Source: Nitrosopumilus sp. (GTDB lineage Archaea; Thermoproteota; Nitrososphaeria; Nitrososphaerales; Nitrosopumilaceae). From it: 64,000 nucleotides of DNA. This document shows, one piece after another, positions 6,865-44,999 of the stretch. Both the position numbers and the translations under genes were made by a program. Position 1 is the stretch's first letter. Each line of letters starts with the position of its first letter. The DNA is taken from the NCBI GenBank assembly GCA_018263505.1, contig JAANXA010000014.1, forward strand, positions 4,319 through 68,318. The letters run 5' to 3'. Below the pieces are notes generated by a model. The model was not told where the DNA came from. It saw nothing but the letters and a program-made list of their open reading frames with translations, and ran no database searches.

Positions 6865-6888
6865 AATTTTTACAAATAATTTTTAGAG

Positions 6889-6976
6889 TAGCCCGAGGCA
6901 GATTCGAACTGCCGTCTCCGCCTATCCACTCTTGAGATCCAGAGGGCAGAATCCTTGACCGCTAGACTATCGGGCT
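6889..6976 (-). tRNA. tRNA-Gln(CUG) with a ~15-nt intron at the canonical 37/38 position
   Basis: Hand fold of the reverse complement: acceptor AGCCCGA/TCGGGCT, D arm GTCT-AGCGGTCAA-GGAT, anticodon stem CTGCC/GGCGG, loop CTCTGG[intron ATCTCAAGAGTGGAT]A, T arm GGCAG-TTCGAAT-CTGCC, discriminator A. No encoded CCA. Confidence 0.75.
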
Positions 6977-9983: not shown

Positions 9984-10057
9984 GCTCCATTTTTGATTAT
10001 TTTTAATCTCAATTAACTTCAATACGCTTAAGTTTAGAATTTTTACAGTAAAGTTAC

Positions 10058-10174
10058 ATGGATAAACGTGATGGGTTAGTATTAGCTGGAATTTTAACTG
10101 CAGGTGCAGTTGCAGTATCTTTTATGGTATTAGTTGCAAATGGAATTATTGGGCATCCATTTTTGGATATTTAA
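10058..10174 (+). CDS. possible 38-aa membrane miniprotein (not in ORF track)
   Basis: ATG..TAA ORF MDKRDGLVLAGILTAGAVAVSFMVLVANGIIGHPFLDI, with one hydrophobic helix. Confidence 0.3.
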   Translation: MDKRDGLVLAGILTAGAVAVSFMVLVANGIIGHPFLDI

Positions 10175-10211
10175 AAATCTGAAAAAATAAAAAAAGAAAT
10201 TAGAAATTTTT

Positions 10212-10403
10212 CTAGAATTCTATAACTGATCCTGCTGAAATTGTATATTTCTGATTTTGTTGCTCTCCATGAACATCATACCATGCGACATTCAAATTCA
10301 CTTTGTTTCTTAATGCAGACTCTATTGTAATACAACTTGCATGTCTTAGTCTGTCTTGAATTGATTTTTTTTGTATTGTGTTTTCTTCTATTTGTTCTTT
10401 CAT
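10212..10403 (-). CDS. hypothetical protein (63 aa)
   Basis: ORF only. Confidence 0.35.
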   Translation of the reverse strand: MKEQIEENTIQKKSIQDRLRHASCITIESALRNKVNLNVAWYDVHGEQQNQKYTISAGSVIEF

Positions 10404-10582
10404 ATGTTATAACAAAATATTTTGATTTAGCAACTTGAGTAAAAATAAATTTTTGATCGCTTGATCAATTTTGACTAGAATATTTTTTGATAATTTTTTT
10501 CCTAACTACGTATCTTTTTTTTAAAATCTAAAAATTCATCTTTAATTAAAACCATTCTTGAAGAATTAACAGATTTTTTAAT

Positions 10583-11026
10583 CTAACATCCAAAATATTT
10601 TGCCCAACTACTATCTGAAAATTCACTTGTTTTACAATGTCTTGTTGATATTTCACCGTGACCTGATCTTAACATGTCCTCATTGAGTATTTTCCCATTA
10701 CACATTACTAATCCAATCACTCTATCGTAACTTCCTTTAGTCTGTAAATCATCTTCGTCTACTAAAACTGTAGAACCTATAGGACAAATATTTTCCAAGT
10801 ATTCTTTTGCCATAACCCCTTCCTCATTAAACAATTCAGGAGATAAAACTAATGCAAGTCTAATGGGTTTTTCATCTACCTTAATTGTATCCCCATCTGT
10901 AATTTGGGTAACTTTTCCTGTGATACATTGTGCTTCTCCTAAACATCCTGAGTCAATAGGTATTGTAATGACTAGAATTCCAACAACTATTAGAATTACA
11001 GGTATGGTATATTTTATTGGAATCAT
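10583..11026 (-). CDS. membrane-anchored staphylococcal-nuclease-like (SNase/thermonuclease) protein
   Basis: N-terminal TM helix, then GKVTQITDGDTIKVDEKPIRLALVLSPE and ...YDRVIGLV..., which resemble the SNase fold pattern. Confidence 0.65.
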   Translation of the reverse strand: MIPIKYTIPVILIVVGILVITIPIDSGCLGEAQCITGKVTQITDGDTIKVDEKPIRLALVLSPELFNEEGVMAKEYLENICPIGSTVLVDEDDLQTKGSYDRVIGLVMCNGKILNEDMLRSGHGEISTRHCKTSEFSDSSWAKYFGC

Positions 11027-11119
11027 ATTATTTTAAATGAAAACAGTATCTAAAAAACTTCATTCAACATCAATTCCGGTTTGATAAATTTTCTAGTTTG
11101 AGTATTTTTAATTGAAAAT

Positions 11120-11302
11120 TCAAAATTTAATTAATTTACATTCTTGTCCTTGTGCTCTGCATTCTGAACAATATAATAAAGGAATTTTTACATCTCCAAT
11201 TTTTTTAAAATTCAAATGTGCATCCATTATGTGACCACATTCAGTATTTTGACATTTTGTGTTTTTGTTGTCAAAAAATATTTGAATAGGTGATTCTTCC
11301 AT
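11120..11302 (-). CDS. small Cys-rich (zinc-ribbon-like) hypothetical protein
   Basis: 60 aa with CQNTECGH...CSECRAQGQEC. Confidence 0.45.
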   Translation of the reverse strand: MEESPIQIFFDNKNTKCQNTECGHIMDAHLNFKKIGDVKIPLLYCSECRAQGQECKLIKF

Positions 11303-11558: not shown

Positions 11559-11741
11559 ATGATTATGACAAAAACGATTAGTTGTAAAAATGCAGGAAAA
11601 GATTGTGCTTGGTCCGCATCAACAGAAACTGAAGAAGAATTGATGTCTTTAGTTACTGAACATGTTTTGGCAGAACATAAAGAAATTGAATTAACCTCTG
11701 AAAATATTTCAAACATAAAGTCATTGATCAAAGAAGAATGA
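11559..11741 (+). CDS. DUF1059-like small protein
   Basis: ISCKNAGKDCAWSASTETEEELMSLVTEHVLAEH matches the DUF1059 pattern (C..G..C...A.tEEEl...v..H....H). The start may instead be 11565. Confidence 0.65.
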   Translation: MIMTKTISCKNAGKDCAWSASTETEEELMSLVTEHVLAEHKEIELTSENISNIKSLIKEE

Positions 11742-11759
11742 TTGTTGATTTTTAAAATT

Positions 11760-14630
11760 TCATTCAATTAGTATTGCGGGTTTAAATGGTCTTGCATGTC
11801 TAGCTTTGCCTTTAGGGTCATAGATGTCTTCATCAGTTACTCCAAACACTTGAATGTCTACACCAAATTCTTTTTTACCAATACTTGATAATTCTGCGTA
11901 TAAAAATTGTTTTTCATTAAACTCTTTTGATTCTAATTTTGTTGATTTAATTTCTTCAGACTCTGAATGCAAGTCCTTGATTACTTTTTGAATAAAGTCT
12001 GGTATTTTTTTAGCATCTGTTGTTTGAGGATCTGCAATTAATTCTTTCATTACTACTCCCATATTGTTTTGACCTCCTACCATAATTTCTAAAATTTTTC
12101 TATAAACTTTAGATTTGAATTCATCAGAGTTTACATAAATTACAATTCTTTGTGGAGTAATTTTTGTTACTTTGAGAATATTTGCAATGTCCTCAATTGT
12201 TGATTTTAGTAGTTCTTCTGATTGAATTGATGTTGCATCTACATCTTCTTTTGAAAATTCAGGCCATGCTGATTTTGATACTTGTTGTGTATATCCTAAT
12301 TTTTCCCACATTTCTTCGGCAATATGTGGTGCGAATGGCGACAACATTGCAACTCTTGTTGAATTGATTTTATGTAATATTCCTGAAATATTGTTTCTGT
12401 TTTTGGCCTCTGCTCTCTTAGCATACCAACTCAAATCAGATTCAAATGAAAATAGTATGTCATGAAGACCTTCTCTTAACCTCATTTTTTCAACCGCCTC
12501 TGTTACTTGAGCAATCATACCTTGAGTTTTTGATATAATCCACCTATCTTCAGTCTCCAGATCTCCTACATCTGATGCTTTGAGGTTACTGCACTCATCT
12601 AGTAGTGATTCTAATTTGCTTTGAATTCCTGTAACACTATCCATATTGAAATCTGCATCTTGGAGTAGTTCAGCTGATGAAATAATTGCTAATCTAATTG
12701 GATCTGCTCCGTGGTCTTTGATTGCAGTTCGAAGTGGAATGATATTTCCCATACTCTTACTCATCTTTACACCATCCATCATTACTGAACCATTGACGAC
12801 AATTTCTTGTGGCCATAATTTTTTTCCAAATATTGCAACATGATTTAAGACAAAAAATGACAAGTGATTTTGTACAAGATCTCGCCCTGAATGTCTAGAG
12901 TCAACTGGGTAAAAGTATTGGAATTCTTTTTTGACCATACTGATTATATCTTCAGATAATTTTGATGTACTAACAGCTAGTGACATATCTCCTTTATCAA
13001 GTAAAATATAATCAAAGAATTCTTTTGTAAGATTTTCAGGTTTTAGAGTTCCATCATTTACAAATCTTGACATTGTATAGTATGCCATGTAAATTACACT
13101 ATCGGATAAACTCTCAACAATCCAATCTTTGTCCCATGGCAGATTAGTTCCCAACCCTTGTTGTCTTGCACATGCTCTTTCATGTAGCCAATCAATTACT
13201 TCTTTGAATTCGGTTGTTATTTTATTTGGTAAGATGTTCATTTCATCAAAACAGTTTCTTGCAGTTTCTTTCCACTCTTCATCACCGTAATTCAAAAACC
13301 ATTGATTGTTCAAAACTTTAACAACACATTCTGTTCCACAACGACATTTTACTGGAGCATTTTCAAGTACTGGGAATTTTTCTAGATATTTATTTTTCAT
13401 TAACCAATCTCTAACTTTATTTCGTCCAAACTGAACTTTCTCATTTTGGAAATCTCCACACTTTTCATTTAATTTCCCATTCGTGAATTCTTTAAGATAC
13501 AACTCATTTGTTGCCTCTTCTAATTTTTGGTCAGATTGGTCTGATACTCCCATCTTTTCACAAATTTCTTTTGCAGGAATTTCACCATACCCTTCAGTGA
13601 AAATGATTGGAGTAGGCTCAATTTTTGAGGCTAATTCATGATTTTTAGTCTTGAGATCCATTAATGCTTGATAATCCTTTGGTGCATGGGCTGGAACTGA
13701 CATGACTAGACCTGTTCCTATACCAGGTTCTACAAATTCTGCTTCTAAAATTGGAAACTCTTGATCGTTGTGTAATGCTGTGGCATACTTTCCAATTATC
13801 TCAGTTCCTGCAATGTCTCCTTTAATTGTAATTTTTTTTCCAAAGAATTCTAATTTTTTTGCACACTCTTCTGAAACAATCCATTTTTCATCATCTGCTT
13901 TGATTTTTTTGTAAATAGTATTTGGATTTGCCCAAAGATTAGTTATTCCAAAAATTGTTTCAGGACGAAGTGTTGTTACTGGAAATATATATTCACCAAA
14001 TTTGAATTTGACTAGATGATTTTTATCATCAATTTTTGGTTCAACATCTCCCATTGTATCGTGTTGTGATACTGGGTTTTGATCACGTGGACACCATCCT
14101 ACTGGGTGTGAACCTTGAATAATTTTACCATTTTCTTTAAGTGTTGTAATTTGCCATTCAATAAATTTTTGATAACCTGGAACAATTGTGGTGAACTCTC
14201 TTCTCCAATCAATAGAGTAACCCATTTCAATCATTCCAGCTTTGATTTCTTCATGGAAATAATCTGCAATTTTTATTGGTTCAACAAATGTTTTGATGTC
14301 TTCTTCTGGAACATGGTAGATGTTTCGTAACCCATCAAGAATTTCTTTTTCTTGAGATTGGATTCTTTTTGCCATTCCTAAAACTGGAGTTCCAGTATAA
14401 TGAAATCCCATTGGAAATAATACATTGAATCCTCTCATTCGATAAAATCTTGCATGTACATCAGCTAGTGTGTATGTTCTTCCATGTCCAATGTGCTGTG
14501 GAGAGTTTGGATATGGATATGCAACTGTAATGAATTTTTTTGGTTTATCATTTGGATTTGTTTCAAAGTCTTTTGACTCATCCCATTTGGTTCTCCATTT
14601 AGTTTCGATTTGGTTCCAGTTAATTTCCAT
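11760..14630 (-). CDS. leuS: leucyl-tRNA synthetase (archaeal type)
   Basis: HIGHGRTY (HIGH) and KMSKS motifs. 956 aa. CP1 editing-insertion pattern. Confidence 0.95.
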   Translation of the reverse strand: MEINWNQIETKWRTKWDESKDFETNPNDKPKKFITVAYPYPNSPQHIGHGRTYTLADVHARFYRMRGFNVLFPMGFHYTGTPVLGMAKRIQSQEKEILDGLRNIYHVPEEDIKTFVEPIKIADYFHEEIKAGMIEMGYSIDWRREFTTIVPGYQKFIEWQITTLKENGKIIQGSHPVGWCPRDQNPVSQHDTMGDVEPKIDDKNHLVKFKFGEYIFPVTTLRPETIFGITNLWANPNTIYKKIKADDEKWIVSEECAKKLEFFGKKITIKGDIAGTEIIGKYATALHNDQEFPILEAEFVEPGIGTGLVMSVPAHAPKDYQALMDLKTKNHELASKIEPTPIIFTEGYGEIPAKEICEKMGVSDQSDQKLEEATNELYLKEFTNGKLNEKCGDFQNEKVQFGRNKVRDWLMKNKYLEKFPVLENAPVKCRCGTECVVKVLNNQWFLNYGDEEWKETARNCFDEMNILPNKITTEFKEVIDWLHERACARQQGLGTNLPWDKDWIVESLSDSVIYMAYYTMSRFVNDGTLKPENLTKEFFDYILLDKGDMSLAVSTSKLSEDIISMVKKEFQYFYPVDSRHSGRDLVQNHLSFFVLNHVAIFGKKLWPQEIVVNGSVMMDGVKMSKSMGNIIPLRTAIKDHGADPIRLAIISSAELLQDADFNMDSVTGIQSKLESLLDECSNLKASDVGDLETEDRWIISKTQGMIAQVTEAVEKMRLREGLHDILFSFESDLSWYAKRAEAKNRNNISGILHKINSTRVAMLSPFAPHIAEEMWEKLGYTQQVSKSAWPEFSKEDVDATSIQSEELLKSTIEDIANILKVTKITPQRIVIYVNSDEFKSKVYRKILEIMVGGQNNMGVVMKELIADPQTTDAKKIPDFIQKVIKDLHSESEEIKSTKLESKEFNEKQFLYAELSSIGKKEFGVDIQVFGVTDEDIYDPKGKARHARPFKPAILIE

Positions 14631-14637
14631 TTTTCAT

Positions 14638-17307
14638 TTATCCTAAAATCATTGATTTTGCTTTTTGTATTGCATCGTCTTTTTTAGATGTGTCTTTACC
14701 TCCACCTTGAGCAAATTTAGCATCTCCTCCACCAGAACCGCCTAAAATTAAGGCTACCTCCTTGGCAATTTCACCTGCATTTATGCCTGATTTCTCACCT
14801 GCAAATATCATTATTCTTATGGTTGGACCTCCTTCAAAAATTCCACAAAATGCTGCTGAATTATCTTTTGCAACTAGTTTCTTTCCAAAGTTTTGATTGA
14901 AATAATCATCATAATTGTTACTTGATGTAAAACAAAGTTTTCCTTTATTGCTAATTTCTTCAGATTCTAATGATTCTCCTGCTAGAACTTTTCTAATAAA
15001 TACTGGAATTTTCTCTCTTGCTTTGTCTTTGTTTTCTTCTCTTTGTTTTTCTAGTTGTTGTTTTTCAATTGTTTGTTGTTCTTTTCTCTTTGATTCTTCT
15101 TCTTGCTCTTTGACATAATCAAATGCATTTGGTCCTGAAACAAATTCTAAACGAACAACACCATCTTGAATTCTCTTTGTCTTTGTAATTTTGATTAATT
15201 CTATTTCTCCTGTTTTCTTTACATGAGTTCCACCACAAGCTTCAACATCTTTGTCTTCAATTGATACAATTCTTACAGACTTTACTGGAACTACTCCACC
15301 TTGATAAATTCTAAATCCATATTGTTGTTCTGCAGTACCTCTATCAAAGTATTCAATCTTAACTGGATAGTTGTCTTTGATCATTTTATTTGCTGCATTT
15401 TCGATTTGTTTTACTTGTTCATTATTTAGTGATGAATGATGTGTAATGTCTAATCTTGCATGATCATCATCTTTGAATGCAGAGTGTTGCCAAACCCATG
15501 AACCTAAAACACTTCGAGCTGATGTATTGATAATGTGAGTACTTGTATGGTTCTTTGTAATGTTTGAACGTCTTGTAATATTCACTTTACCCTGAACAAT
15601 ATCTCCTTCCTTTGGAATTCCACCTTTTAATTTATGAACAATAATGTCTGCATGTTTATCAACATCGATTACCTCAAATCCTGCTATACTTCCATGGTCA
15701 GGCTCTTGTCCCCCACCTCTGGCATAAAATGATGTTTTGTCTAATACTACTTGATCATCAAATACTTTGATTACTTTGGCCTCAAATTCCATTGGATCAT
15801 CTTTGTAAAATAGAGTTTCAGTTTCTGGAAGTTGTTCTAATGGCAATTCTGTTATTGCTTTTTTCTTTTCTGATTGGTGTAAATCTGATAATTTGGAGTA
15901 AAATGATGATGGAATTTCTGTAATTGCATTTACTTCTTTGAGATATTCTGGAGTAATTCCATCTGATTCGTAAAATGTAATGAGTTCATCAACTGTTGGA
16001 GTACCTTTTTCACGAATTTTTTCTGCTTTCTTCTTCATGTGAACTTTAGATTCTTCATATCTGGCAGATTCTATTTTGAGAATTTGTTTGACATCTTCTC
16101 TTTTTTCGTCAAGTTCAGGATAGGTATCTTTTAGATAATCAATATGTGTATCAATCAAGTCATCGATGTCTAGTTTGAGATTTAATTTGCTAACTGTTGC
16201 ATTGATTCTTCGTAACATCATTCTGAGATTATATCCTCCACCAACATTACTTGGAAGTGCACCATCTGTAATTGCAAAAATTAGTGTACGTAAATGGTCT
16301 GCAATTAGATACATTCCTTCCATTGGTGTGATCATTTTAGATAACTGTTCATCTGTAATCTTTGCATTTTTTATTGCAAGACGTCTTACTTGGTTTAAAT
16401 CATCAAAATGATCAATTTCCTTTGCAATCTCTGTGAAATATTTTCTTAAAATTTCTGAATCAGAATCAATTCCAATTATGTTAAATAATTTTTCATTAAT
16501 TGGTCCAAAACAACAATCATAGGCTGTAGGTGTTCCCATTGTAATCCATGCAAATCTTTCTAATCCTGCACCCATATCGATTACTCTTTGGTCTAGTGTT
16601 GTGTGTTGACCTAACTCTCCTTGGAATTCTGTAAATACTGCATTTCCTAATTCTAATCCTCTTACAAAATATTCTAGTGATGGTCCAAAAGAACCACCAC
16701 CAGCCCAAACGTCTTCCACAAAAATTACTTCTTCTTCTTTAATTCCAAATTGATCAGTAAGTAATCTATAATCCAAATCAACACATTCATCTTTCCAATA
16801 TCCTTGATTATTTGGAACACTATGTTGTCCAATCATACAGAAACTTGAGAAATGTCTTCCAGTGACTCCTACATTTTCTAAATCTTTGAATCTTAGACAT
16901 GTTTGTGGAACAACTAAAGGATTTGCAGGGAATTCAAATACCACCTTTGAACCCATTATTCTTTGAAAATCTACGATTGATGCAATTGTAAAATACAAGT
17001 CATCTCGCCATCTACACACAACGGGATACCTACTTACCGATGTGTGATTATTTTTCACAAAAAACTCTTCTACTTGTTTCCATGCTTGTGTATAGTCAAA
17101 TCTCTTTGAGGTTGGTGGTTCTCCGATAAATGAATAAGTATCTACTCCATCATCTGGACATAAATCTCTCTCTGCATCTAAAGTCCAAAAGAATCTGCCA
17201 CATTTGGTACATGCTTTTCTAATGAAGCCTTGGTCTTGGAATAATTTGACATTATAGTATTTATCAGGATCTGATGAAAATTCTTTCAGAATTTCTTTTT
17301 TGTCCAA
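14638..17307 (-). CDS. alaS: alanyl-tRNA synthetase
   Basis: 889 aa. Class II core. Editing-domain HTSTH...CGGTHV. Apparent TTG start. Confidence 0.95.
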   Translation of the reverse strand: MDKKEILKEFSSDPDKYYNVKLFQDQGFIRKACTKCGRFFWTLDAERDLCPDDGVDTYSFIGEPPTSKRFDYTQAWKQVEEFFVKNNHTSVSRYPVVCRWRDDLYFTIASIVDFQRIMGSKVVFEFPANPLVVPQTCLRFKDLENVGVTGRHFSSFCMIGQHSVPNNQGYWKDECVDLDYRLLTDQFGIKEEEVIFVEDVWAGGGSFGPSLEYFVRGLELGNAVFTEFQGELGQHTTLDQRVIDMGAGLERFAWITMGTPTAYDCCFGPINEKLFNIIGIDSDSEILRKYFTEIAKEIDHFDDLNQVRRLAIKNAKITDEQLSKMITPMEGMYLIADHLRTLIFAITDGALPSNVGGGYNLRMMLRRINATVSKLNLKLDIDDLIDTHIDYLKDTYPELDEKREDVKQILKIESARYEESKVHMKKKAEKIREKGTPTVDELITFYESDGITPEYLKEVNAITEIPSSFYSKLSDLHQSEKKKAITELPLEQLPETETLFYKDDPMEFEAKVIKVFDDQVVLDKTSFYARGGGQEPDHGSIAGFEVIDVDKHADIIVHKLKGGIPKEGDIVQGKVNITRRSNITKNHTSTHIINTSARSVLGSWVWQHSAFKDDDHARLDITHHSSLNNEQVKQIENAANKMIKDNYPVKIEYFDRGTAEQQYGFRIYQGGVVPVKSVRIVSIEDKDVEACGGTHVKKTGEIELIKITKTKRIQDGVVRLEFVSGPNAFDYVKEQEEESKRKEQQTIEKQQLEKQREENKDKAREKIPVFIRKVLAGESLESEEISNKGKLCFTSSNNYDDYFNQNFGKKLVAKDNSAAFCGIFEGGPTIRIMIFAGEKSGINAGEIAKEVALILGGSGGGDAKFAQGGGKDTSKKDDAIQKAKSMILG

Positions 17308-17396
17308 CTATGAAAACTATTTTCCTCCGATATTAAGAATTGTCGATTAACATTATTTTCTATATTTTAAAATTGAATTAAATATTTCATCACGTA

Positions 17397-18347
17397 ATGA
17401 AAACTGCATGTTTTGATGGAAAACAAATGAAATATGTTCAAAACTATCCCTACCCAAAACCTGAAGAATCTTTAGTCAAAGTCAATTTGGCAGGAATTTG
17501 TGGAACTGATTTAGAAATTTTAGGTGGATACATGGAATATCGTGGAATATTGGGTCATGAATTTGTTGGAACTGTTAAACATTCAGATAATTCAAATCTA
17601 GTTGGGAAAAGAGTTGTAGGTGAGATAAATGTTGGATGTAATGAATGTGATAATTGCAAAAAAGATTTGCAAAGACATTGTCCTAATAGAACCGTCCTTG
17701 GAATTTTAAAACGAGATGGTGCTTTTGCTGAATTTTTATCATTACCTTCAGAAAATTTACATGTCATTCCTGATTCTATTTCTGATGAACAGGCAGTGTT
17801 TATTGAACCTCTAGCTGCTGCATTTGAAATTAAAGAACAAGTTTCTTTGAATCCTGAATGGGTTGTAGCAGTAGTTGGTGATGGAAGACTTGCACAAATG
17901 ATTTGTCAAGTACTAAAACTATCTTGTTCTAATGTTACTTGTTTTGGAAAACATCAAAGTAAATTAAAACATATGAAAAAATTATCTATATTGACTAAAA
18001 TTGGAATTGATTCATTATCTCACCAATTTTTTGATTTGGTGGTAGAGGCTACTGGAAGTAATTCAGGATTTACTGATACTATGAAACTTGTAAAACCTCG
18101 TGGAACTGTGATTCTTAAATCAACTATTGCGTCAAGAGAAAATCTTGATTTGACTCCTACCATTGTAAATGAAATTACTTTGATTGGTTCTCGTTGTGGC
18201 TTGTTCAAACCTGCTATTGATGCATTGGCAACTGGAATGATTTCAGTTGATTTTATGATTGATTCTATTTATCCCTTGGAAAATTTCTCCGATGCAATAG
18301 AACATGCAAAAAAATCTGATACTTTCAAAGTTTTTCTAAAACCTTAG
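17397..18347 (+). CDS. zinc-dependent alcohol/threonine dehydrogenase family (MDR) oxidoreductase
   Basis: GHEFVGTV catalytic Zn motif. Structural Zn CNECDNCKKDLQRHC. GDGRLA Rossmann segment. Confidence 0.85.
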   Translation: MKTACFDGKQMKYVQNYPYPKPEESLVKVNLAGICGTDLEILGGYMEYRGILGHEFVGTVKHSDNSNLVGKRVVGEINVGCNECDNCKKDLQRHCPNRTVLGILKRDGAFAEFLSLPSENLHVIPDSISDEQAVFIEPLAAAFEIKEQVSLNPEWVVAVVGDGRLAQMICQVLKLSCSNVTCFGKHQSKLKHMKKLSILTKIGIDSLSHQFFDLVVEATGSNSGFTDTMKLVKPRGTVILKSTIASRENLDLTPTIVNEITLIGSRCGLFKPAIDALATGMISVDFMIDSIYPLENFSDAIEHAKKSDTFKVFLKP

Positions 18348-39010: not shown

Positions 39011-39454
39011 TTGTTAGCAAAAAGTCTTGTAATTTTTACTGGTGTTGGATTAATTGCAGGACTCATTTTTGGAATTTATTTAATCGATATCAAAAATACA
39101 GGCCAACTTGTTTTTGTTGATGGAAATTCTATTTCCATTGTAACTGAAAAATCTGATTTTAAATTAGGTGAAGAAATTAAAATTAAAATTATAAATTCTG
39201 GAACCACATCCTTGATATTTTCTGATACTTCACATGTTCTTAGAATTACTGGTCTGTCTGGAATCTTAATGTATACTCCTGATCCTCATACACTTTCTAC
39301 ACTTGAACCTGGAGATGAAATCTCTTTTTCATGGGATCAAATTAAGAATGATGGTGATACTGCATTAGAAGGTCTTTACAAATTATCTACTAGTGCTATG
39401 GACTCATCTGGAAATGTTGTAGAAAAATCCATCACCATCACAATTTGGAAATAA
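39011..39454 (+). CDS. hypothetical N-terminally anchored protein with a beta-rich ectodomain
   Basis: TM helix at residues ~5-25, then a beta-strand-like pattern. No motif recognised. Confidence 0.5.
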   Translation: MLAKSLVIFTGVGLIAGLIFGIYLIDIKNTGQLVFVDGNSISIVTEKSDFKLGEEIKIKIINSGTTSLIFSDTSHVLRITGLSGILMYTPDPHTLSTLEPGDEISFSWDQIKNDGDTALEGLYKLSTSAMDSSGNVVEKSITITIWK

Positions 39455-39522: not shown

Positions 39523-39621
39523 GCCGGGGTCGCCTAGCCTGGTAGGGCGCGCGCCTGGAAATAATTAAACCATAAAGCGCGTTCTCGTAAGGGAACGGGA
39601 GTTCAAATCTCCCTCCCGGCG
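39523..39621 (+). tRNA. tRNA-Ser(GGA) with a 15-nt intron at 37/38 and a long variable arm
   Basis: Hand fold: acceptor GCCGGGG/TCCCGGC, D arm GCCT-AGCCTGGTA-GGGC, anticodon stem CGCGC/GCGCG, loop CTGGAA[ATAATTAAACCATAA]A, variable arm TTCTC-GTAA-GGGAA, T arm GGGAG-TTCAAAT-CTCCC, discriminator G. Confidence 0.8.
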
Positions 39622-39623
39622 CC
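39613..39623 (+). repeat. attL core (ctcccggcgcc) overlapping the tRNA-Ser 3' end
   Basis: Exact match to 44989-44999. A GC-rich 11-mer in an AT-rich genome. Confidence 0.7.
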
Positions 39624-39630
39624 TTATAAT

Positions 39631-40962
39631 ATGAATAGTAGGCGCAATGAACAAAATTTTCCCCCCTTAAATCCAACCCAACATCGTATTGGTGTGAAAG
39701 AAAAAGAGAGAGGAATCGACTGGCACAACTCAAAGAGAAGGGCGGAGCTTGCAAAGATGAGAATTCAAAGACGATTCTCAAAAGAAAATACAGCTGTTGC
39801 CTGGAGATTTGTGGACCGATTGAGGCTTGATAACATGTCCTATGGAAGAATTGAAAACTATTCTGGCTCTGTAATCAGAATACTTCATCTCAAAGATGAC
39901 AAAGAAATCAAAGACTGGTCCAAAGAAGAAATTGAAAAAGTACACATGATGATAGCAGACTCGTCATACGAAAATTCGGTCAAAAAAGATACCCTTACTG
40001 CACTCAAAAGGTTCTATCATTTTGCAGTACACAATGAAATTGTTGTCAAATCAAAAAATCAGGAGTATGATCCCAACGTTGCATGGATAACCCCTGGGTC
40101 ATTTCGTGATAAGTTTGAAAAAATACAACCCCGGGATCTTCTCACTGATGAAGAAATACTGCAGCTAATTCAGGCCGTAAAAAAGATTGGAGGAAAATAT
40201 GTGAAAAGAAACATTGCACTCGTATTTGTTCTACTTGAAGGAGCATACCGTCCGGGTGAGCTTCTTAACATTAGGATGGGAGGAATTGAATTTCATAAAG
40301 ACTTTGTGCAAATTCACACTACTGGTAAAACTGGTCCAAAGTCACTTACCCTTGTTGCGTCATACAATCCTCTCAGGGAGTGGTTAAATGAGCATCCAAA
40401 AGATGGCAATCCTTCTGCATTTCTCCTGTATCATGACAATGAAAGCGAGGTCATGAGATACTGGGCACTTGATCATCTCATAAGAAAGGCAAGGGAAAAA
40501 GCTGGAATTACAAAACGTGTATGGCCATATCTGTTTAGACACACGGCATTAACTGAGTATAGCAAAAAGCTAGGAAATATTGCTAAAATTTACGGCAACT
40601 GGTCAAAGGACTCAGACATGCTATCTCACTATGAACACCTTGCAAGCTCAGACCAGCAAGATGCTGTTTTGAAGCTTCATGGTCTTAAAAAAGACGATGA
40701 ACAAAATTCAATCTTGTTTTCCAAAGTCTGCCCTGACTGCAAGCAGCAAAACAGCAGCGACAAGTCGCATTGCATTCGCTGTGGAATGGGACTCTCAAAG
40801 GAGCTTGCACAGGTAAGGCAGGCAATGCTGGAGAAGAGACAAAACTCTGATGTTAAAACACTTGAAAGGAAATTTTCAAAGAAGATAAGGAATCTGGAAT
40901 CATTAATCATAGAACAGCGAAGATTCATCCAACAGCTTGTCAATGACAAGACTGCAAAGTGA
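39631..40962 (+). CDS. int: tyrosine recombinase / phage-type integrase with a C-terminal zinc ribbon and coiled-coil tail
   Basis: Catalytic pattern R207 (GAYRPGELL), R303-H304 (YLFRHTALT), W324, Y334 (LSHYEHL). Zn ribbon CPDCKQQNSSDKSHCIRCG at aa 367-384. Confidence 0.85.
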   Translation: MNSRRNEQNFPPLNPTQHRIGVKEKERGIDWHNSKRRAELAKMRIQRRFSKENTAVAWRFVDRLRLDNMSYGRIENYSGSVIRILHLKDDKEIKDWSKEEIEKVHMMIADSSYENSVKKDTLTALKRFYHFAVHNEIVVKSKNQEYDPNVAWITPGSFRDKFEKIQPRDLLTDEEILQLIQAVKKIGGKYVKRNIALVFVLLEGAYRPGELLNIRMGGIEFHKDFVQIHTTGKTGPKSLTLVASYNPLREWLNEHPKDGNPSAFLLYHDNESEVMRYWALDHLIRKAREKAGITKRVWPYLFRHTALTEYSKKLGNIAKIYGNWSKDSDMLSHYEHLASSDQQDAVLKLHGLKKDDEQNSILFSKVCPDCKQQNSSDKSHCIRCGMGLSKELAQVRQAMLEKRQNSDVKTLERKFSKKIRNLESLIIEQRRFIQQLVNDKTAK

Positions 40963-41051
40963 GGAATTTGAAAAATAAATTGATAGCCATTTTGAGCAGA
41001 CAGAATCATTTCTCAAATAATTTTATTAAGTTAGGAATTTTCCAGTAATAA

Positions 41052-41588
41052 ATGGAAAAGATCAATGAAGATGATGAAAATTTTGATAAAATCAAAATTT
41101 TCTCTTCTGATGATGACAAATTAAAAATTCTTGGAGAACTATTGAGTAACAAATCCAGTAGAGACATCATAAAATTACTGATAGGAAAAGAAATGTACAT
41201 AAACGAGATCGCAAAAAAATTAGATCTCAAAGTAAGTTTGGTAATACATCATTTACAAAAGATGGAAGTAATAGGTCTACTTGAAATTACAAAAAAGAAA
41301 ATTGCCAGAGAAGGAGAAACGCATCGCTTTTTTAAAATCCCGTCAGGAATGTTAATTTTTCCTAAACAATCTGAGGAAGAAGTAAACAATGGTGTTTTAA
41401 AGAAAATTTTCAAAAGGGGAATAAAATTTGCAATTATTGGGTTTGTGGCAGTATTTTCTTGGGTCTATATTCAAAACAGTCCTACAATTTATAGCGAAAA
41501 TGTAAAAGATTATAATTTTACAATTCCTTTAGCAGTGATTTTAATTGGATTGCTTATCGAAAAAATTATAAAAAAAATAAAGAGATAA
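41052..41588 (+). CDS. membrane-tethered ArsR-like winged-helix transcription factor
   Basis: wHTH pattern LKILGELLSNKSSRDIIKLLIGKEMYINEIAKKLDLKVSLVIHHLQKMEVIGLLE, followed by two hydrophobic helices (FAIIGFVAVFSWVYI and IPLAVILIGLLI). Confidence 0.7.
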   Translation: MEKINEDDENFDKIKIFSSDDDKLKILGELLSNKSSRDIIKLLIGKEMYINEIAKKLDLKVSLVIHHLQKMEVIGLLEITKKKIAREGETHRFFKIPSGMLIFPKQSEEEVNNGVLKKIFKRGIKFAIIGFVAVFSWVYIQNSPTIYSENVKDYNFTIPLAVILIGLLIEKIIKKIKR

Positions 41589-41592
41589 ACTG

Positions 41593-42786
41593 CTATAATA
41601 CGGCAGTTGCCCCTAGATGCGTTGATATTCTATCTACTGGTGACCAATATGCTTCATCCCAAAAAGACTGACCTCCGCTAATTACTCCATACAAGCTTGT
41701 ACCTGCAGAGTTTGTAACTGGAGCTCCACTATCGCCGAATGTTATATCCATTGAAGAAGCCTTTACGAGATGGTTTACTTCAGTGCCAAAAGGCCATGTT
41801 CCGTAATAAGCTGTAAAATCAGTATCAACAACAGTTCCCCATACTAGATCAGACTCATCTCCTGACATTAAGACATAGTCACCTGATTGAGAAGATGCGC
41901 TTGTTGTGCTTGATGGATCATATGTACTTCCTGCGGCAAGATAAATTACTTCATCAATGTCACTTGTAGAAGCACCTACAAATGCACAGTCGCAGGAAGT
42001 TCCATCATAGTATAATTCTGCTGTTACTGTTCCAAATGGATTTTGATTACCTGTTGGGTGATACACACTTTGTCCTACATCACCATCCGCGCAATGTCCT
42101 GCAGTAACAAATCCTGGGGCGCCAGATCTTGTTGCCTCAAATCCGAAAGTACAATCACCACTAGTATGTGCTTCAATTGAAGCTCCTCCAATTACTGGAT
42201 CACAATTGTGTCTACTTGTACAAGAAAAAGTTGTTGGTGAATCTCTAAACTTTATGGTGAATGATTCTTCATCAGGGATCAATTCATGCAACTTGTTTCT
42301 TATTTCCGCAACATTTGCTCTATTTTCTGGCGTATCTAGGATCTCAAATGACAGTTGTTTGTTTATTGCATCAGTTCCCATGCCTACTATAGGAATTCCT
42401 GAAAAGTCCGTATTTTCACGAATTTCTGCTAATTCTGCTTGTCTTTCTGGTGCAACATAATATCTGTCATTGTTTTTTTTCTCTATCTCAGCAAATTCGT
42501 CTTCAATTTTAGCCACTTCGGAATTTATTTCTTGAATTCTTTCTATATTTCCAACTGGATCACTTTTTTCAAGCTCTTGTTTTTCTGCTAATAGATGAAG
42601 ACGTTTTTCCATAATTTTAGATACTCTTTTGAGATCTTGTTGTTCTTCTACTGATAGATCAGTTTTTTTGGTTACATCTTTTACTGCTACATTTTCTGCA
42701 TCTGCAAAATGAATTCCAGCTATAGGAATTACTAATGCAACAGTCAAAGCTGCAAACAAAGCAATTTTGAAGTTCTTCGTAGTCAT
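41593..42786 (-). CDS. secreted chymotrypsin-fold serine protease, alpha-lytic/streptogrisin type (S1E), with an N-terminal pro-region
   Basis: Signal anchor MTTKNFKIALFAALTVALVIPIAG. Coiled-coil plus pro-domain-like IVGMGTDAINKQLSFEILD. Triad motifs VTAGHCADG, CDCAFV and GDSGAPV. ATG at 42786 preferred over the TTG-extended ORF. Confidence 0.8.
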   Translation of the reverse strand: MTTKNFKIALFAALTVALVIPIAGIHFADAENVAVKDVTKKTDLSVEEQQDLKRVSKIMEKRLHLLAEKQELEKSDPVGNIERIQEINSEVAKIEDEFAEIEKKNNDRYYVAPERQAELAEIRENTDFSGIPIVGMGTDAINKQLSFEILDTPENRANVAEIRNKLHELIPDEESFTIKFRDSPTTFSCTSRHNCDPVIGGASIEAHTSGDCTFGFEATRSGAPGFVTAGHCADGDVGQSVYHPTGNQNPFGTVTAELYYDGTSCDCAFVGASTSDIDEVIYLAAGSTYDPSSTTSASSQSGDYVLMSGDESDLVWGTVVDTDFTAYYGTWPFGTEVNHLVKASSMDITFGDSGAPVTNSAGTSLYGVISGGQSFWDEAYWSPVDRISTHLGATAVL

Positions 42787-42850
42787 TATTAATTTCCATA
42801 ATTGGAAATCATAAAAGAATTTAGTCAATCCAGATTGAGCTAATTCTTAT
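42776..42850. repeat. left arm of an inverted repeat (perfect 68-bp core 42776-42843)
   Basis: The reverse complement equals 43232-43299 exactly. Seven more matching nt follow a 2-nt indel. Covers the upstream region plus the first four codons of the protease gene. Confidence 0.92.
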
Positions 42851-43222
42851 ATTCAAAACATTAAATTTTCATGCCAAGTGCAAAGAAATTGTAGGAAATG
42901 ATCAATTAGAAAAATTTGTGAAAAAAATTTCTTTCGTCATTCCAAAATTAACATCTGTCATAACTGCCTGGCAGCGAAGCAGTTTATCAAATACAACACA
43001 ACCACACCATAATTGCTAGAAGGTGACTTTCAAATTATAAAGAAAATGCAAGTATCGATACTTTGATTTTTTTTTAACTGAAATATCTGCACTTGTGTTT
43101 GTTACCAACAATCTAAAATACATAAGTTCATCTATAATCGTCTTTTTACGGTGTAGTAACACGATAATGTCAGAACAAATTTTGATAAAACAAACAAAAA
43201 CAATTTTTGAGAAATTCCTATT

Positions 43223-43299
43223 ATAAGAACATTAGCTCAATCTGGATTGACTAAATTCTTTTATGATTTCCAATTATGGAAATTAATAATGACTACGAA
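43223..43299. repeat. right arm of the inverted repeat (perfect 68-bp core 43232-43299)
   Basis: See the left arm. Contains a TATA-like ttttatga 25-32 nt upstream of the ATG at 43289. Confidence 0.92.
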
Positions 43300-44200
43300 A
43301 ACAACAAAAACAATTGCATTGATGTCAATCATTGCGGGCATACTTGTTACTAGTTCTATTGTCCTGAACGCAGTACAAGTGAATGCAGCAGAGATAGAGT
43401 CTCCTAAAAGATACACTGCAGAAATTCTTTCCAGTGAAGTAAAGAATGTGTATTATTCTGGCGATACTAAAGTTCAGCGATTAGAGGTAACTATCAAAGC
43501 CAAAGAACTTCCAACCTTTGAAGAATTAGTTGAAGACAATCAAAAATACTATGATTGGCTAACCTCTAATTTCGGAAAGAGAGGTGAAATGAAGGTAGAA
43601 GAGCTAAAGGCAGAATTGAAGCAAACAGTTGACAATAGACCTGATGTAATGACCGTAAATATGGTTAGAGTAGGAGATCATTCTATTCTATTTGGAGATG
43701 AATCATATGATTCACCAATGGGAAATGCAAAAGATCCAGTAAACATGGTCTTTTATGAAGATGCTACTACCTCTCAAACAGATACTGTTATTGATTCCTA
43801 CGCAGACAATAATTGGGGTGGGGATGGAGTATCACCACAACAATATGTTCTAATCAACAATGTGCCTCATGGAGGAACTTTGGATTGGGTACAAAGTGAT
43901 CATCAACAGTACAAAGGAAACATTGTAGGTCAAAGAGAACATGTACGTTTGTTTGGCGGAGATTATGACACACACAGTGTTTACGATTATTGGTCTGTAG
44001 GTACTGCACATCAAGAAACATGGAATACTTTGTGTCTATGTCATGAGATTGATTCTTGGGAAAATGCTGAATCCGAGCTTAGGAATGATCTGGTCGGTCA
44101 AACTGGTGTAGGGAATGTTGGAACATACAATCAAGGAAATTCAGGTTACTGGCAAGGCGAATACAATAACGGCGTTGCACGTCTAATCGAGCTGACATAA
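43289..44200 (+). CDS. secreted protein of unknown function (His/Trp/Asp-rich C-terminal domain)
   Basis: Signal peptide MTTKTTKTIALMSIIAGILVTSSIVLNAVQVNA|AE. Segments DPVNMVFYED and REHVRLFGG faintly recall LssY_C-type domains, but this is unverified. Confidence 0.6.
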   Translation: MTTKTTKTIALMSIIAGILVTSSIVLNAVQVNAAEIESPKRYTAEILSSEVKNVYYSGDTKVQRLEVTIKAKELPTFEELVEDNQKYYDWLTSNFGKRGEMKVEELKAELKQTVDNRPDVMTVNMVRVGDHSILFGDESYDSPMGNAKDPVNMVFYEDATTSQTDTVIDSYADNNWGGDGVSPQQYVLINNVPHGGTLDWVQSDHQQYKGNIVGQREHVRLFGGDYDTHSVYDYWSVGTAHQETWNTLCLCHEIDSWENAESELRNDLVGQTGVGNVGTYNQGNSGYWQGEYNNGVARLIELT

Positions 44201-44229
44201 ATACTCCACCACATTATTTTTTTTAAGAT

Positions 44230-44532
44230 ATGAAAATAATCATAGCATTTCTAGTCTACGGATTTGTTGTTTCAATTCTAAATAACATATCTATGGAAAA
44301 ATCAGGAGAATACATAATTTACACATTATTGAATTGGCCAGTAGAACATTTATTCATTCCTCCGTCCTTGCTTTATTTTGCAAATGATATGGGTGATGCG
44401 TTACTACAGGATCAAATAATGATTCTACGAACTGTTGTTAGTGTAATATTTTGGGGCATACTTGGTTTCACAATTCATTCAATACGTAGAATTCTCACCA
44501 AAAACACAATCAAAATCAAATCTACGTTGTAG
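44230..44532 (+). CDS. small multi-pass membrane protein (100 aa)
   Basis: Three hydrophobic segments. Starts 30 nt after the preceding gene, on the same strand. Confidence 0.45.
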   Translation: MKIIIAFLVYGFVVSILNNISMEKSGEYIIYTLLNWPVEHLFIPPSLLYFANDMGDALLQDQIMILRTVVSVIFWGILGFTIHSIRRILTKNTIKIKSTL

Positions 44533-44988
44533 ATAGTAATAATGGCAGGATACAGGTATTTGAATCCATTTTCTCATAGTTTATAATGAATTTCATAACA
44601 CCAAAATTAATTATGATTAATTATTGAAATGTATGTTGTAGCAATAAGAATTTTATTGTAACTTAGAAACTTGACCGATTCTTATGGAGATGGAATCAAT
44701 TTGAACCTAATTTTTAAATGAATGAGGTACTTCTAGTAAAATCCTAGAAGAATCCCATCATCAATGAGTTATACTAGTAAAAGTTAAGAATTCTATTTCT
44801 GGAACAACTTTTGCATTAATTCATGACATTCATAAAACTTTTCTAGCTGGGTTACTATTGTAAAATGGTTGTTACATCACGTAGCTATGAAATGTGAAAA
44901 TACCGAAACACAAAACAGGAAACTTTTCCTATGACTTCAAACTGGTAATTTTTTCATTCATTGTGCTTGCAGAAAACATTATTAATCA

Positions 44989-44999
44989 CTCCCGGCGCC
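44989..44999 (+). repeat. attR core (ctcccggcgcc)
   Basis: Exact copy of the tRNA-Ser 3' terminal 11 nt. Located 3 nt from the stop of the flanking FAD-oxidoreductase gene. Confidence 0.7.

Follow-up and report, generated by a model that had tools for sequence, protein, structure and literature searches.

A probable small integrative mobile element at the 3' end of a tRNA-Ser(GGA) gene in Nitrosopumilus

The tRNA-Ser(GGA) gene at 39523-39623 is an intron-bearing plus-strand gene in the window, the 64,000-nucleotide stretch of Nitrosopumilus sp. contig JAANXA010000014.1 to which all coordinates here refer, and it is the target of an integration event. Rfam (RF00005) places a tRNA at 39523-39621 with 40.4 bits, and ARAGORN run with introns allowed (-i) assigns 39523-39623 to tRNA-Ser(gga), split by a 15-nt intron at ~39559-39573. 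Under its default settings, ARAGORN misses the gene. The final 30 nt are kept across ~75 related loci, and the gene in the window is still intact after integration.

The 3' end of this gene carries the left copy of an exact 11-bp direct repeat, CTCCCGGCGCC. The attL core (39613-39623, plus strand) spans the last T-stem base, the 3' acceptor strand, the discriminator G, and CC. The attR core (44989-44999, plus strand) is followed by the original chromosomal flank, in which a FAD-oxidoreductase gene has its stop at 45003. An earlier note on this DNA had proposed an element integrated into the tRNA gene and bordered by the repeat; the tRNA is supported by both programs, and the two repeat copies are confirmed and unique in the window, with no third copy at one mismatch tolerated. 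The expected number of matches is 0.01, and two or more copies occurred in 0 of 100 dinucleotide-preserving shuffles. No larger or better repeat sets other borders. The element therein is 39624-44999, or 5,376 bp with one core copy counted. Partial matches flank the cores at 17 of 21 positions. Within the DNA covered for the closest related elements (L089, L021, and L096), attR was not located. An unrelated 6.4-kb element in L062 occupies the same tRNA with a 13-bp repeat, CCCTCCCGGCGCC.

The element's first gene encodes a 443-aa tyrosine integrase (39631-40962, plus strand; PF00589, E 5.8e-14; phrog_1 integrase, E 1.1e-19). Its catalytic set is R207, K233, Y300-x-x-R303, W324, and Y334, as located by alignment to XerA (5hxy) and by motif positions. 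The C-terminus contains a zinc-ribbon-like CxxC...CxxC motif (residues 367-385) followed by a basic tail. The consensus of pNOB8-type integrases is R...YxxR...Y (PMC8371274), and judged by this pattern the enzyme is predicted to be a classical (non-split) member of that type. It resembles pNOB8-type systems (classical, type II, lambda paradigm; PMC8371274) in that its gene stays intact on integration and its target is a tRNA 3' end, but att identity is 11 bp here versus 40-50 bp in Sulfolobales elements (PMC8371274), and the zinc-ribbon-like extension is an addition. A homology search bears out the integrase of the earlier note as an intact ORF in a large Nitrosopumilaceae family (138 homologues), the best of which are 96% identical and lie at the same tRNA.

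The second gene (41052-41588, plus strand) encodes an ArsR/SmtB-type winged-helix (wHTH) regulator (PF01022, 30.4 bits against a cutoff of 22; NF033788) whose C-terminal half is hydrophobic and membrane-anchored. It has 208 homologues in total, and those in L091, L092, L095, and L096 are 60-75% identical and adjoin the 3' side of the integrase gene.

The third gene (41593-42786, minus strand) encodes a secreted, alpha-lytic-protease-like serine protease of the S1 fold with 397 aa. Its PDB matches, at E 6e-6 to 1e-3, are alpha-lytic protease and lytic endopeptidase, the latter from Lysobacter. Like alpha-lytic protease and streptogrisin, it contains TAGHC, CDC, and GDSG motifs and a signal peptide with a long pro-region (~190 aa) ahead of the catalytic domain, in which the triad is H231/D266/S353. 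Unlike them, it shows only weak similarity to the type (best E 6e-6; Pfam trypsin matches under the gathering cutoff) and falls into a distinct family, with 498 representatives and a link to the membrane wHTH gene; the triad columns are invariant. Paired wHTH and protease genes also occur on other islands and on chromosomes of Nitrosopumilaceae, as well as on unknown contigs of ~51.6 kb. The closest protease homologue, P0125 (56% identical), has a neighbouring wHTH gene and is found on three independent contigs of 51.0-51.7 kb with nearly all unknown ORFs, which look like an uncharacterised virus or plasmid.

The remaining genes form a two-gene cassette on the plus strand. The first encodes a secreted protein of 303 aa with a signal peptide (43289-44200), which falls into no family in Pfam, NCBIfam, PHROG, or PADLOC and has only 4 homologues in a 5.8-billion-cluster search; its AlphaFold model (pLDDT 36) is unusable. 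Its conserved partner is a small two-helix membrane protein of 100 aa (44230-44532), and in L093 and L094 an ORF 42-54% identical to it directly follows the homologue of the secreted-protein gene. The cassette is also present on a 76-kb contig rich in methyltransferases and small unknown ORFs. The earlier note had listed these five genes correctly. For the protease and the secreted protein, the true starts are the ATGs at 42786 and 43289 and not the upstream TTGs of the mechanical gene list. The note's description of the cargo as unusual is somewhat too strong: the wHTH-protease pair is widespread in Nitrosopumilaceae, and the cassette is a rare orphan.

The right end of the element (44533-44988) is AT-rich non-coding DNA with 28% GC. 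Its first ~220 nt are assigned to the element backbone because the L089 element has them too: two stretches, of 175 nt (89% identical) and 60 nt (80% identical), match positions 18125-18525 of L089. A separate excisionase gene was not found, and no ORF of at least 33 aa lies wholly within 44533-44988. The RNA fold predicted for this region is not significant (z -0.54). It may conceivably contain integrase arm sites.

A perfect 69-nt inverted repeat (I1, 100% complementary) separates the protease and secreted-protein genes and surrounds a 386-bp spacer. The left arm (42776-42844, minus strand) contains 58 nt of putative promoter/operator and then the protease gene's ATG with 8 more coding nt, while in the right arm (43231-43299, plus strand) lie the putative promoter/operator of the secreted-protein gene and its start codon. 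Each arm forms a promoter-like unit: an upstream palindrome, the TTTTATGA box at -30 to -23 relative to the ATG, and, from this box to the start, a second palindrome. The arm motif also precedes secreted-protein genes of L094, L097, and L099; it does not resemble the att core. The spacer (42845-43230) is the decayed remnant of a small divergent gene, and its remnant CKEIVGNDQLEK matches the N-terminus of a 116-aa protein in L099.

L095 and L096 contain perfect inverted repeats of 62 nt around a 392-bp spacer. The window spacer aligns over its full length with that of L096, but solely in the minus-strand direction (E 9e-38, 70% identity); its orientation is thus reversed in L095 and L096 relative to the window, although all of these loci read tRNA, integrase, wHTH. 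The two arms of any one element match each other at 100%, implying that recombination or gene conversion is ongoing. When elements are compared, 59 of 62 arm positions agree but spacer identity is only 70%, and for this reason, together with the decayed gene remnant, the spacer looks neutral, unlike that of promoter-bearing invertons.

Ten contigs from other samples contain the same chromosomal site without the element. Both of their flanks are 99.1-99.8% identical to the window at the nucleotide level, and the alignment ends exactly at 39623, the last base of the attL core, and picks up again at 44986, a perfect empty site. At the junction they have ...TCTCC CTCCCGGCGCC ATTTCATTTTTC, the left side of attL fused to the right side of attR. 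Chimeric assembly of these contigs is unlikely because ten independent runs agree. At the species level, the tRNA-Ser gene lies at most 20 nt from the orthologous FAD-oxidoreductase gene in 14 of 80 Nitrosopumilus-group relatives, including the two closest (L009 and L010; flanks 81-93% identical). The empty site sought by the earlier note is therefore found both in near-identical strains and in related species. Five border-reaching contigs that carry the element (L001-L005, from Suakin Deep runs within SRR10589498-507) show integrated junctions; neither an excised circle nor an attP junction was found.

The composition of the element is foreign to the window. GC content is 39.9% in the integrase gene and 35.1% in the element versus 32.4% in the remaining window, which agrees with the G+C-richer integrase region that the earlier note had judged by eye. 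The tetranucleotide distance of the element is 0.196, making it the strongest outlier in the window (other 5.4-kb windows: mean 0.1215, sd 0.014, maximum 0.1675). For the housekeeping genes secY, cbf5, adk, and cmk, identity to L089 and L091 is 68-81%, yet for the integrase gene it reaches 96% at the nucleotide level, which indicates recent transfers. In these distant hosts the same integrase is found at the same tRNA with different cargo.

Taken together, the region 39624-44999 is very probably (about 0.9) a small integrative mobile element in a marine ammonia-oxidising archaeon of the Nitrosopumilus group, placed into the 3' end of tRNA-Ser(GGA) by its own tyrosine integrase, the reading proposed by the earlier note; the empty sites, composition, intact integrase, and absence of a better repeat all support it. 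The 11-bp core of a circular element (attP, ...TTAATCA CTCCCGGCGCC TTATAATATG-int) would recombine with its exact 11-bp counterpart at the 3' end of the tRNA (attB, ...TCTCC CTCCCGGCGCC ATTTCAT...). Because the exchange would fall inside the shared core, the tRNA gene would be regenerated at attL, and an 11-bp copy would stay at attR beside the FAD-oxidoreductase gene. The circular intermediate, the crossover inside the core, and present-day competence for excision are presumed. Since an 11-bp identity is short, putative arm sites or the flanking partial matches would have to add specificity. The conserved backbone consists of the integrase, the ArsR-type regulator with its membrane anchor, and the non-coding right end, and the cargo is exchangeable: here the protease and the orphan cassette of secreted and small membrane proteins. 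Both secreted-protein genes would be driven by identical promoter copies with palindromic operators, which are most likely bound by the wHTH protein.

The element may be real but now a fixed, immobile genomic island, the product of a single integration whose useful cargo was retained and whose integrase no longer excises. The Suakin Deep contigs gave integrated junctions only, neither an excisionase nor a replication gene was identified, and, as the truncated integrase remnant of L078 at this site shows, elements of this sort do decay in place. This possibility deserves some weight but is doubtful given the full-length integrase with all catalytic residues, the two perfect cores, the strains at least 99% identical that lack the element, and the recent transfers indicated by integrase and flank identities. 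A view of the region as ancestral chromosome deleted in relatives, with a coincidental 11-bp repeat, has nothing specific in its favour, although short-repeat deletions do occur. A chance repeat is expected ~0.01 times per window, the borders match the tRNA 3' end exactly with an integrase adjoining, the composition is foreign, and distant hosts carry this integrase at the same tRNA together with other cargo; the empty sites and the integrase versus flank identity across hosts effectively refute deletion. Origin as a defective provirus or satellite that needs a helper virus for packaging and transfer would suit the 51.0-51.7 kb virus- or plasmid-like contigs with the closest protease homologue and wHTH gene, as well as the cassette on the 76-kb contig. 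It is very improbable, as the element has no capsid, portal, terminase, or packaging genes, the integrase is its sole PHROG match, and neither the integrase nor the secreted protein has relatives among 2.9 million IMG/VR contigs.

The inverted repeats and spacer could also act as a programmed inverton that toggles or modulates the protease versus the secreted protein, through the element's tyrosine recombinase or host recombination. The Campylobacter fetus sap locus, described by Dworkin and Blaser in the 1990s, reportedly has opposed genes whose identical 5' regions bracket a recombination-invertible segment; that segment is said to carry a single promoter, so that inversion switches the expressed gene. 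The window likewise has opposed genes with identical 5' regions around an invertible segment, and the perfect repeats in three elements, the reversed spacer, the identity of arms within each element, and a tyrosine recombinase gene 2 kb away are in keeping with such a device. Unlike the sap locus, however, each arm here holds a complete putative promoter, so the orientation of the spacer need not matter. The spacer moreover looks like neutral, decaying DNA, and the arms have no likeness to the att core. An inverton is thus improbable: incidental recombination probably flipped the spacer, and this is likelier than a phase switch.

Thaumarchaeal cryptic integrated elements (CIE) range from 2.6 to 98 kb with att sites of 8 bp or longer (median 17 bp), and Thaumarchaeota have 3'-distal tRNA targets that include intron-bearing tRNAs (PMC6563490, PMC8371274). 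Lacking genes for replication, capsid, or conjugation, the element is grouped with the CIE. Like them, it has an integrase, short flanking direct repeats, a 3'-distal tRNA insertion, borders checked against relatives without the insertion, a size within their range, and no virus, conjugation, or casposon hallmark genes (PMC6563490). It differs from a typical CIE in its small size (5.4 kb versus a median of 17 kb; Krupovic et al. 2019, PMC6563490) and its lack of a replication protein, and its cargo is a regulator with a secreted-protein module. The element is a clean but ordinary case of a known class of archaeal integrated elements.

The element at window positions 39624-44999 is inserted at the 3' end of a tRNA-Ser(GGA) gene and is bounded by an exact 11-bp direct repeat. 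This repeat, CTCCCGGCGCC, occurs at 39613-39623 (attL) and 44989-44999 (attR) and nowhere else in the whole 64-kb window with up to one mismatch allowed; dinucleotide-preserving shuffles give 0.01 expected matches. A search for a larger or better boundary repeat found none and returned just 17/21 partial matches around the core. The attL copy is the 3' end of the tRNA gene itself, and the core spans the last T-stem base, the 3' acceptor strand, the discriminator G, and CC. Rfam places the tRNA at 39523-39621 (40.4 bits), and ARAGORN with introns allowed reports tRNA-Ser(gga) at 39523-39623 with a 15-nt intron, in agreement with the identity first assigned to it; the default mode of ARAGORN missed the gene. 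tRNA genes with introns have been noted as integration targets (PMC8371274). The tRNA gene is intact at attL after integration. The CCA end is encoded at the empty site (...GCGCCA in the junctions of the empty-site contig L107 and the empty-site locus L009), whereas attL reads ...GCGCCT (window 39621-39624); because the encoded A is lost at attL on integration, the terminal A must be added enzymatically. Elsewhere in the window, the anticodon region of tRNA-Gln(CTG) (6888-6976, minus strand) contains about 18 extra nt, which fits an intron of the archaeal kind.

Housekeeping genes flank the element on both sides. To its left lie the SecY-to-Cbf5 block and the gene of a 147-aa protein; to its right lie genes for an FAD oxidoreductase and a 2-hydroxyacid dehydrogenase. 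The 147-aa protein, encoded between the tRNA and Cbf5 (39011-39454), matches no Pfam family and is fast-evolving, with 61-80% identity where Cbf5 shows 88-96%, and it is syntenic in 80/80 related loci.

Empty sites were found at two depths of relatedness. At the species level, no more than 20 nt separate the tRNA from the orthologous FAD-oxidoreductase gene in 14 of 80 Cbf5-anchored loci from GTDB genomes. Among these 14 are the two closest relatives, L009 and L010, whose post-tRNA sequences (ATTTTATTTTTCTA... and TTTTTATTTTTCTA..., respectively) match the attR flank of the window. At the strain level, an exact-sequence look-up with the 147-aa flank protein returned ten contigs, one from ENA (labelled sponge metagenome) and nine from Logan (runs between SRR13694683 and SRR13694715). 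Their identity to the window is 99.1-99.8% on both flanks, with the alignment stopping at 39623 and restarting at 44986, and their junction, ...TCTCC CTCCCGGCGCC ATTTCATTTTTC, is exactly the left side of attL joined to the right side of attR. In L107, the attB junction reads ...GTTCAAATCTCC CTCCCGGCGCC ATTTCATTTTTC. Contigs carrying the element come from runs SRR10589498-507, a series (PRJNA593704) from the brine-seawater interface of Suakin Deep, a Red Sea site with an abundant Nitrosopumilus population (PMC8319295). Since the empty-site contigs are at least 99% identical to the window and the element is present in the Suakin Deep contigs, its presence or absence is polymorphic among strains that share at least 99% identity. 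Contigs from element-bearing samples that reach a border show integrated junctions, and a look-up with the membrane-protein gene for the excised form returned the integrated contig only. Three Logan element contigs, L006 (SRR10589502), L007 (SRR10589504), and L008 (SRR10589501), have their starts among the first 16 nt of the tRNA gene and do not extend into the upstream flank; these starts may reflect co-occurring strains with a common tRNA and different upstream DNA.

Composition also sets the element apart. Its G+C content is 35.1%, compared with 32.4% for the remaining window and 39.9% for the integrase gene, which had looked G+C-richer by eye. Its tetranucleotide distance to the remaining window is 0.196, and other 5.4-kb windows have a mean of 0.1215 (sd 0.014) and a maximum of 0.1675, so the element is the strongest tetranucleotide outlier in the window. 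Borders, empty sites, intact integrase, and composition thus all support the earlier reading of a tRNA-targeted integrative element.

The integrase (39631-40962) is a full-length ORF of 443 aa that matches PF00589 (E 5.8e-14) and the phrog_1 integrase. Alignment with XerA (PDB 5hxy) and motif positions give the catalytic set R207, K233, Y300-L-F-R303, W324, and Y334, and R...YxxR...Y is the catalytic consensus of the pNOB8 type (PMC8371274). The ORF is unsplit, with the core ending at 39623 and the ORF beginning at 39631. This pattern and the unsplit gene identify a predicted classical (pNOB8-type) integrase. An SSV-type (suicidal) integrase would carry attP within its gene and does not fit an ORF that is intact and lies outside the repeat. 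The top NCBIfam match, archaeal XerA, is far under its cutoff (79.5 vs 220 bits), and the N-terminal SAM-like domain PF13495 also scores under its own (E 0.008). The C-terminus contains a CxxC...CxxC zinc-ribbon-like motif followed by a basic tail.

Homology searching bore out the integrase assignment and detected 138 family members, nearly all of them in Nitrosopumilaceae. Integrases encoded right after the same tRNA in related elements share 96% (L089, L091, L092), 93% (L021), and 91% (L095, L096) protein identity with that of the window; the last two loci were the only ones returned by a JGI metagenome scan, and an IMG/VR scan with the integrase found no relative. The integrase gene is 96% nucleotide-identical between the window and L089 and L091, whereas secY, adk, cmk, and cbf5 of L089/L091 are 68-81% identical to those of the window. 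The nearest hosts, L009 and L010 (flanks 81-93%), are without the element. Together these values carry the signature of a recent transfer of the integrase gene between species.

The related elements have a common backbone consisting of the integrase, the membrane winged-helix (wHTH) gene, and part of the right-end non-coding DNA. The membrane wHTH protein is 60-75% identical to that of the window in L091, L092, L095, and L096, and 36-38% in L089; the right end at 44533-44755 is 80-89% identical to L089. The cargo is variable: L092, L095, and L096 carry one or two S1 proteases, L089 a reprolysin-like metalloprotease and an NHL-repeat protein, and L021 two ATPases and a TrmB-like regulator. No attR was found within the retrieved DNA of L021, L089, L095, and L096. 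The right-end non-coding DNA wholly contains no ORF of 33 aa or more, has no Rfam match, and its predicted RNA fold is not significant (z -0.54).

Searches of the element with Pfam, PHROGs, and NCBIfam detected no replication, capsid, packaging, or conjugation genes, and the same databases with PADLOC returned no virus, conjugative, casposon, or IS transposase hallmarks among its five proteins. Two of the five have no detectable family, so they may carry hidden functions. Thaumarchaeal cryptic integrated elements (CIE) range from 2.6 to 98 kb, use 3'-distal tRNA sites, and have att sites whose median length is 17 bp and whose shortest is 8 bp (PMC6563490). The window element resembles them in its integrase, 11-bp direct repeats, borders verified in relatives, and lack of hallmark genes, and it matches this known class as a very cleanly delimited member.

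The tRNA-Ser(GGA) gene is an integration hot spot for several unrelated integrases. Other DNA, 0.13-8.1 kb in length, lies between the tRNA and the oxidoreductase gene in 18/80 loci, and several of these loci encode unrelated or distantly related integrases (26-61% identical). In L062, an unrelated 6.4-kb element (11632-18021) occupies the same tRNA-Ser(GGA) 3' end with a 13-bp repeat, CCCTCCCGGCGCC. In L078 (8268-11222), a truncated remnant of a window-type integrase and a degenerate repeat are followed by the apparent start of another element, an arrangement that looks like tandem accretion.

The gene content of the element agrees with the earlier note and comprises an integrase, an ArsR-type wHTH protein, a minus-strand protease, a family-less secreted protein, and a 100-aa membrane protein. 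The ArsR-type winged-helix protein (41052-41588) matches HTH_5 (PF01022, 30.4 bits vs a cutoff of 22), and its C-terminal half reads as hydrophobic. In its 231-aa homologue of L089 (14650-15345), the membrane part partially matches the Pfam family of archaeal AmoA (PF12942, E 2.7e-11, residues 145-196).

The protease lies on the minus strand, with ATG 42786 as its true start, and comprises a signal peptide, a long pro-region, and a catalytic domain. The triad H231, D266, and S353 is invariant in 6 family members and is set in a TAGHC ... D ... GDSG context. PDB matches include Lysobacter lytic endopeptidase and alpha-lytic protease (E 6e-6 to 1e-3), with 5mrt, 2oua, and 3ure at E 6e-6 to 6e-5; scores for Pfam Trypsin and Trypsin_2 are under the gathering scores. 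Triad context and similarity to solved members place the protein as a predicted S1 (chymotrypsin-fold) protease of the alpha-lytic type, in a family of about 500 representatives.

The description of this cargo as unusual holds in part. It does not hold for the convergent wHTH-protease pair, which recurs beyond the element in a GmrSD island (L097, L098), next to sdh genes and argH (L099), and on three independent 51.0-51.7 kb contigs of unknown ORFs (L102-L104). It does hold for the secreted protein (start ATG 43289), for which a large protein search yielded just four homologues. The agreeing lengths of L102-L104 (Ga0309788_100146, ERZ27251120 k141_2122683, and Ga0114923_10000168) point to a complete, as yet uncharacterised virus or plasmid of Nitrosopumilaceae. 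These contigs carry the closest homologue of the protease (56%) and a wHTH gene, and their genes lie mostly on one strand, with one ORF of 1625 aa; a scan of nine larger ORFs gave no Pfam match and two weak PHROG matches.

The 100-aa membrane-protein homologue directly follows the secreted-protein homologue in 2/2 retrieved contexts (L093, L094), and the pair forms a conserved two-gene cassette. The L093 copy (10001-11247) lies on a 76-kb contig, JGI Ga0247388_10000001, which is rich in small unknown ORFs, DNA methyltransferases, and an M10 peptidase and may be another mobile element. The AlphaFold model of the secreted protein has a pLDDT of 36 (4-sequence alignment), and an IMG/VR scan with its alignment found no relative. 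The cargo is no known defence system, since PADLOC gave only generic wHTH matches for the element proteins.

The observations establish exact borders, an empty site, an intact tRNA at attL, an intact integrase, and recent horizontal spread. Integration would have proceeded through a circular intermediate carrying attP, ...TTAATCA CTCCCGGCGCC TTATAAT-ATG(int). Strand exchange would take place inside the 11-bp core, and added specificity could come from flanking partial matches or from arm sites in the conserved right end. No excision product was found in the retrieved contigs and no excisionase or replication function among the element ORFs; the element may therefore be mobile just rarely or be helped by another element. 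Its presence and absence in strains at least 99% identical from different samples lends indirect support to current mobility.

A perfect 69-nt inverted repeat (42776-42844 and 43231-43299) surrounds a 386-bp spacer, and the two secreted-protein genes diverge from it. Logan contigs break inside the arms, as expected for short-k-mer assembly at a 69-nt repeat. In each arm, 58 upstream nt are followed by the ATG and 8 more coding nt. The upstream part includes a palindrome, CAATCTGGATTG, a TATA-like box, TTTTATGA, at -30..-23 of the ATG, and a second palindrome, ATTTCCAnnnnTGGAAAT, between this box and the ATG. The box position fits a leaderless or near-leaderless transcript, and the palindromes AATTAGCTCAATCTGGATTGACTAAATT and ATTTCCAATTATGGAAAT are predicted operator sequences for the wHTH domain. 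An action of the integrase on this inverted repeat is unsupported, as the AT-rich arms have nothing in common with the GC-rich att core.

In L099, the upstream motif of the arms also stands before the protease gene and two more genes, and it is found before genes of L094, L097, and L089 as well, which identifies the arms, as judged from their sequence, as copies of a shared promoter/operator. In L099 it forms a perfect 12-4-12 palindrome. The motif, ATTAG(C/A)TCAAT(C/T)TGGATTGA..., stands before several Nitrosopumilaceae secreted-protein genes, at window 43231-43288 and 42787-42844 and at L099 9756(-), 10347(+), and 11941(+), L097 9897(-), L094 27(+), and L089 14590(-). The adjacent wHTH protein most likely binds this putative promoter/operator, and the motif-bearing genes suggest a regulon of this membrane-anchored ArsR-type protein.

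Inverted repeats that bracket a short segment could also form a programmed invertible switch. Under such a scheme, flipping of the spacer or linked gene conversion would determine whether the lytic-type protease or the orphan secreted protein, together with its membrane partner, is expressed, and a membrane-tethered ArsR-like protein would act as the regulator. Similar geometry occurs in L095 (8794-9309) and L096 (11277-11792), where 62-nt perfect arms enclose a 392-bp spacer between two protease paralogues. The window spacer aligns full length to these spacers in reverse orientation only (70%, E 9e-38), and all three loci are oriented tRNA>int>wHTH; this opposite orientation is a difference between lineages and not within one population. 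An assembly artefact is an unlikely source of it, since L095 and L096 were assembled independently and L099 has the same arrangement as the window. In L099, the promoters are non-identical and enclose a live 116-aa gene in an arrangement collinear with the window, where a remnant of that gene (CKEIVGNDQLEK) persists in the spacer. The opposite orientation in L095/L096 and the collinearity of the window with L099 imply that the spacer inverted in the L095/L096 lineage, with the arms homogenised by gene conversion.

Invertible control is the less likely reading because the promoter-like elements appear to lie in the arms rather than in the spacer, conservation is lowest in the spacer (70% vs 59/62, or 95%, for the arms), and the spacer resembles decaying DNA with a gene remnant. 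A programmed switch is accordingly improbable. To our knowledge, invertons have not been described in ammonia-oxidising archaea. Chromosomal invertons in Archaea have been called 'minimally investigated' (bioRxiv 10.1101/2023.03.11.532203). Were the switch genuine, an archaeal mobile element would be carrying a phase-variable exoproteome module in an ammonia oxidiser.

These results do not overturn current understanding. The element is a textbook-quality, precisely bounded small integrative element of a marine ammonia oxidiser. Its exact 11-bp core, matching empty site, and recently moved integrase make it a candidate for genetic tools in Nitrosopumilus, such as site-specific integration vectors; we know of no such tools for this genus at present. 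The regulator and secreted-protease module moves among chromosomes, small integrative elements, and large unknown episome-like contigs, and it is relevant to how these oligotrophs interact with proteins or neighbouring cells.
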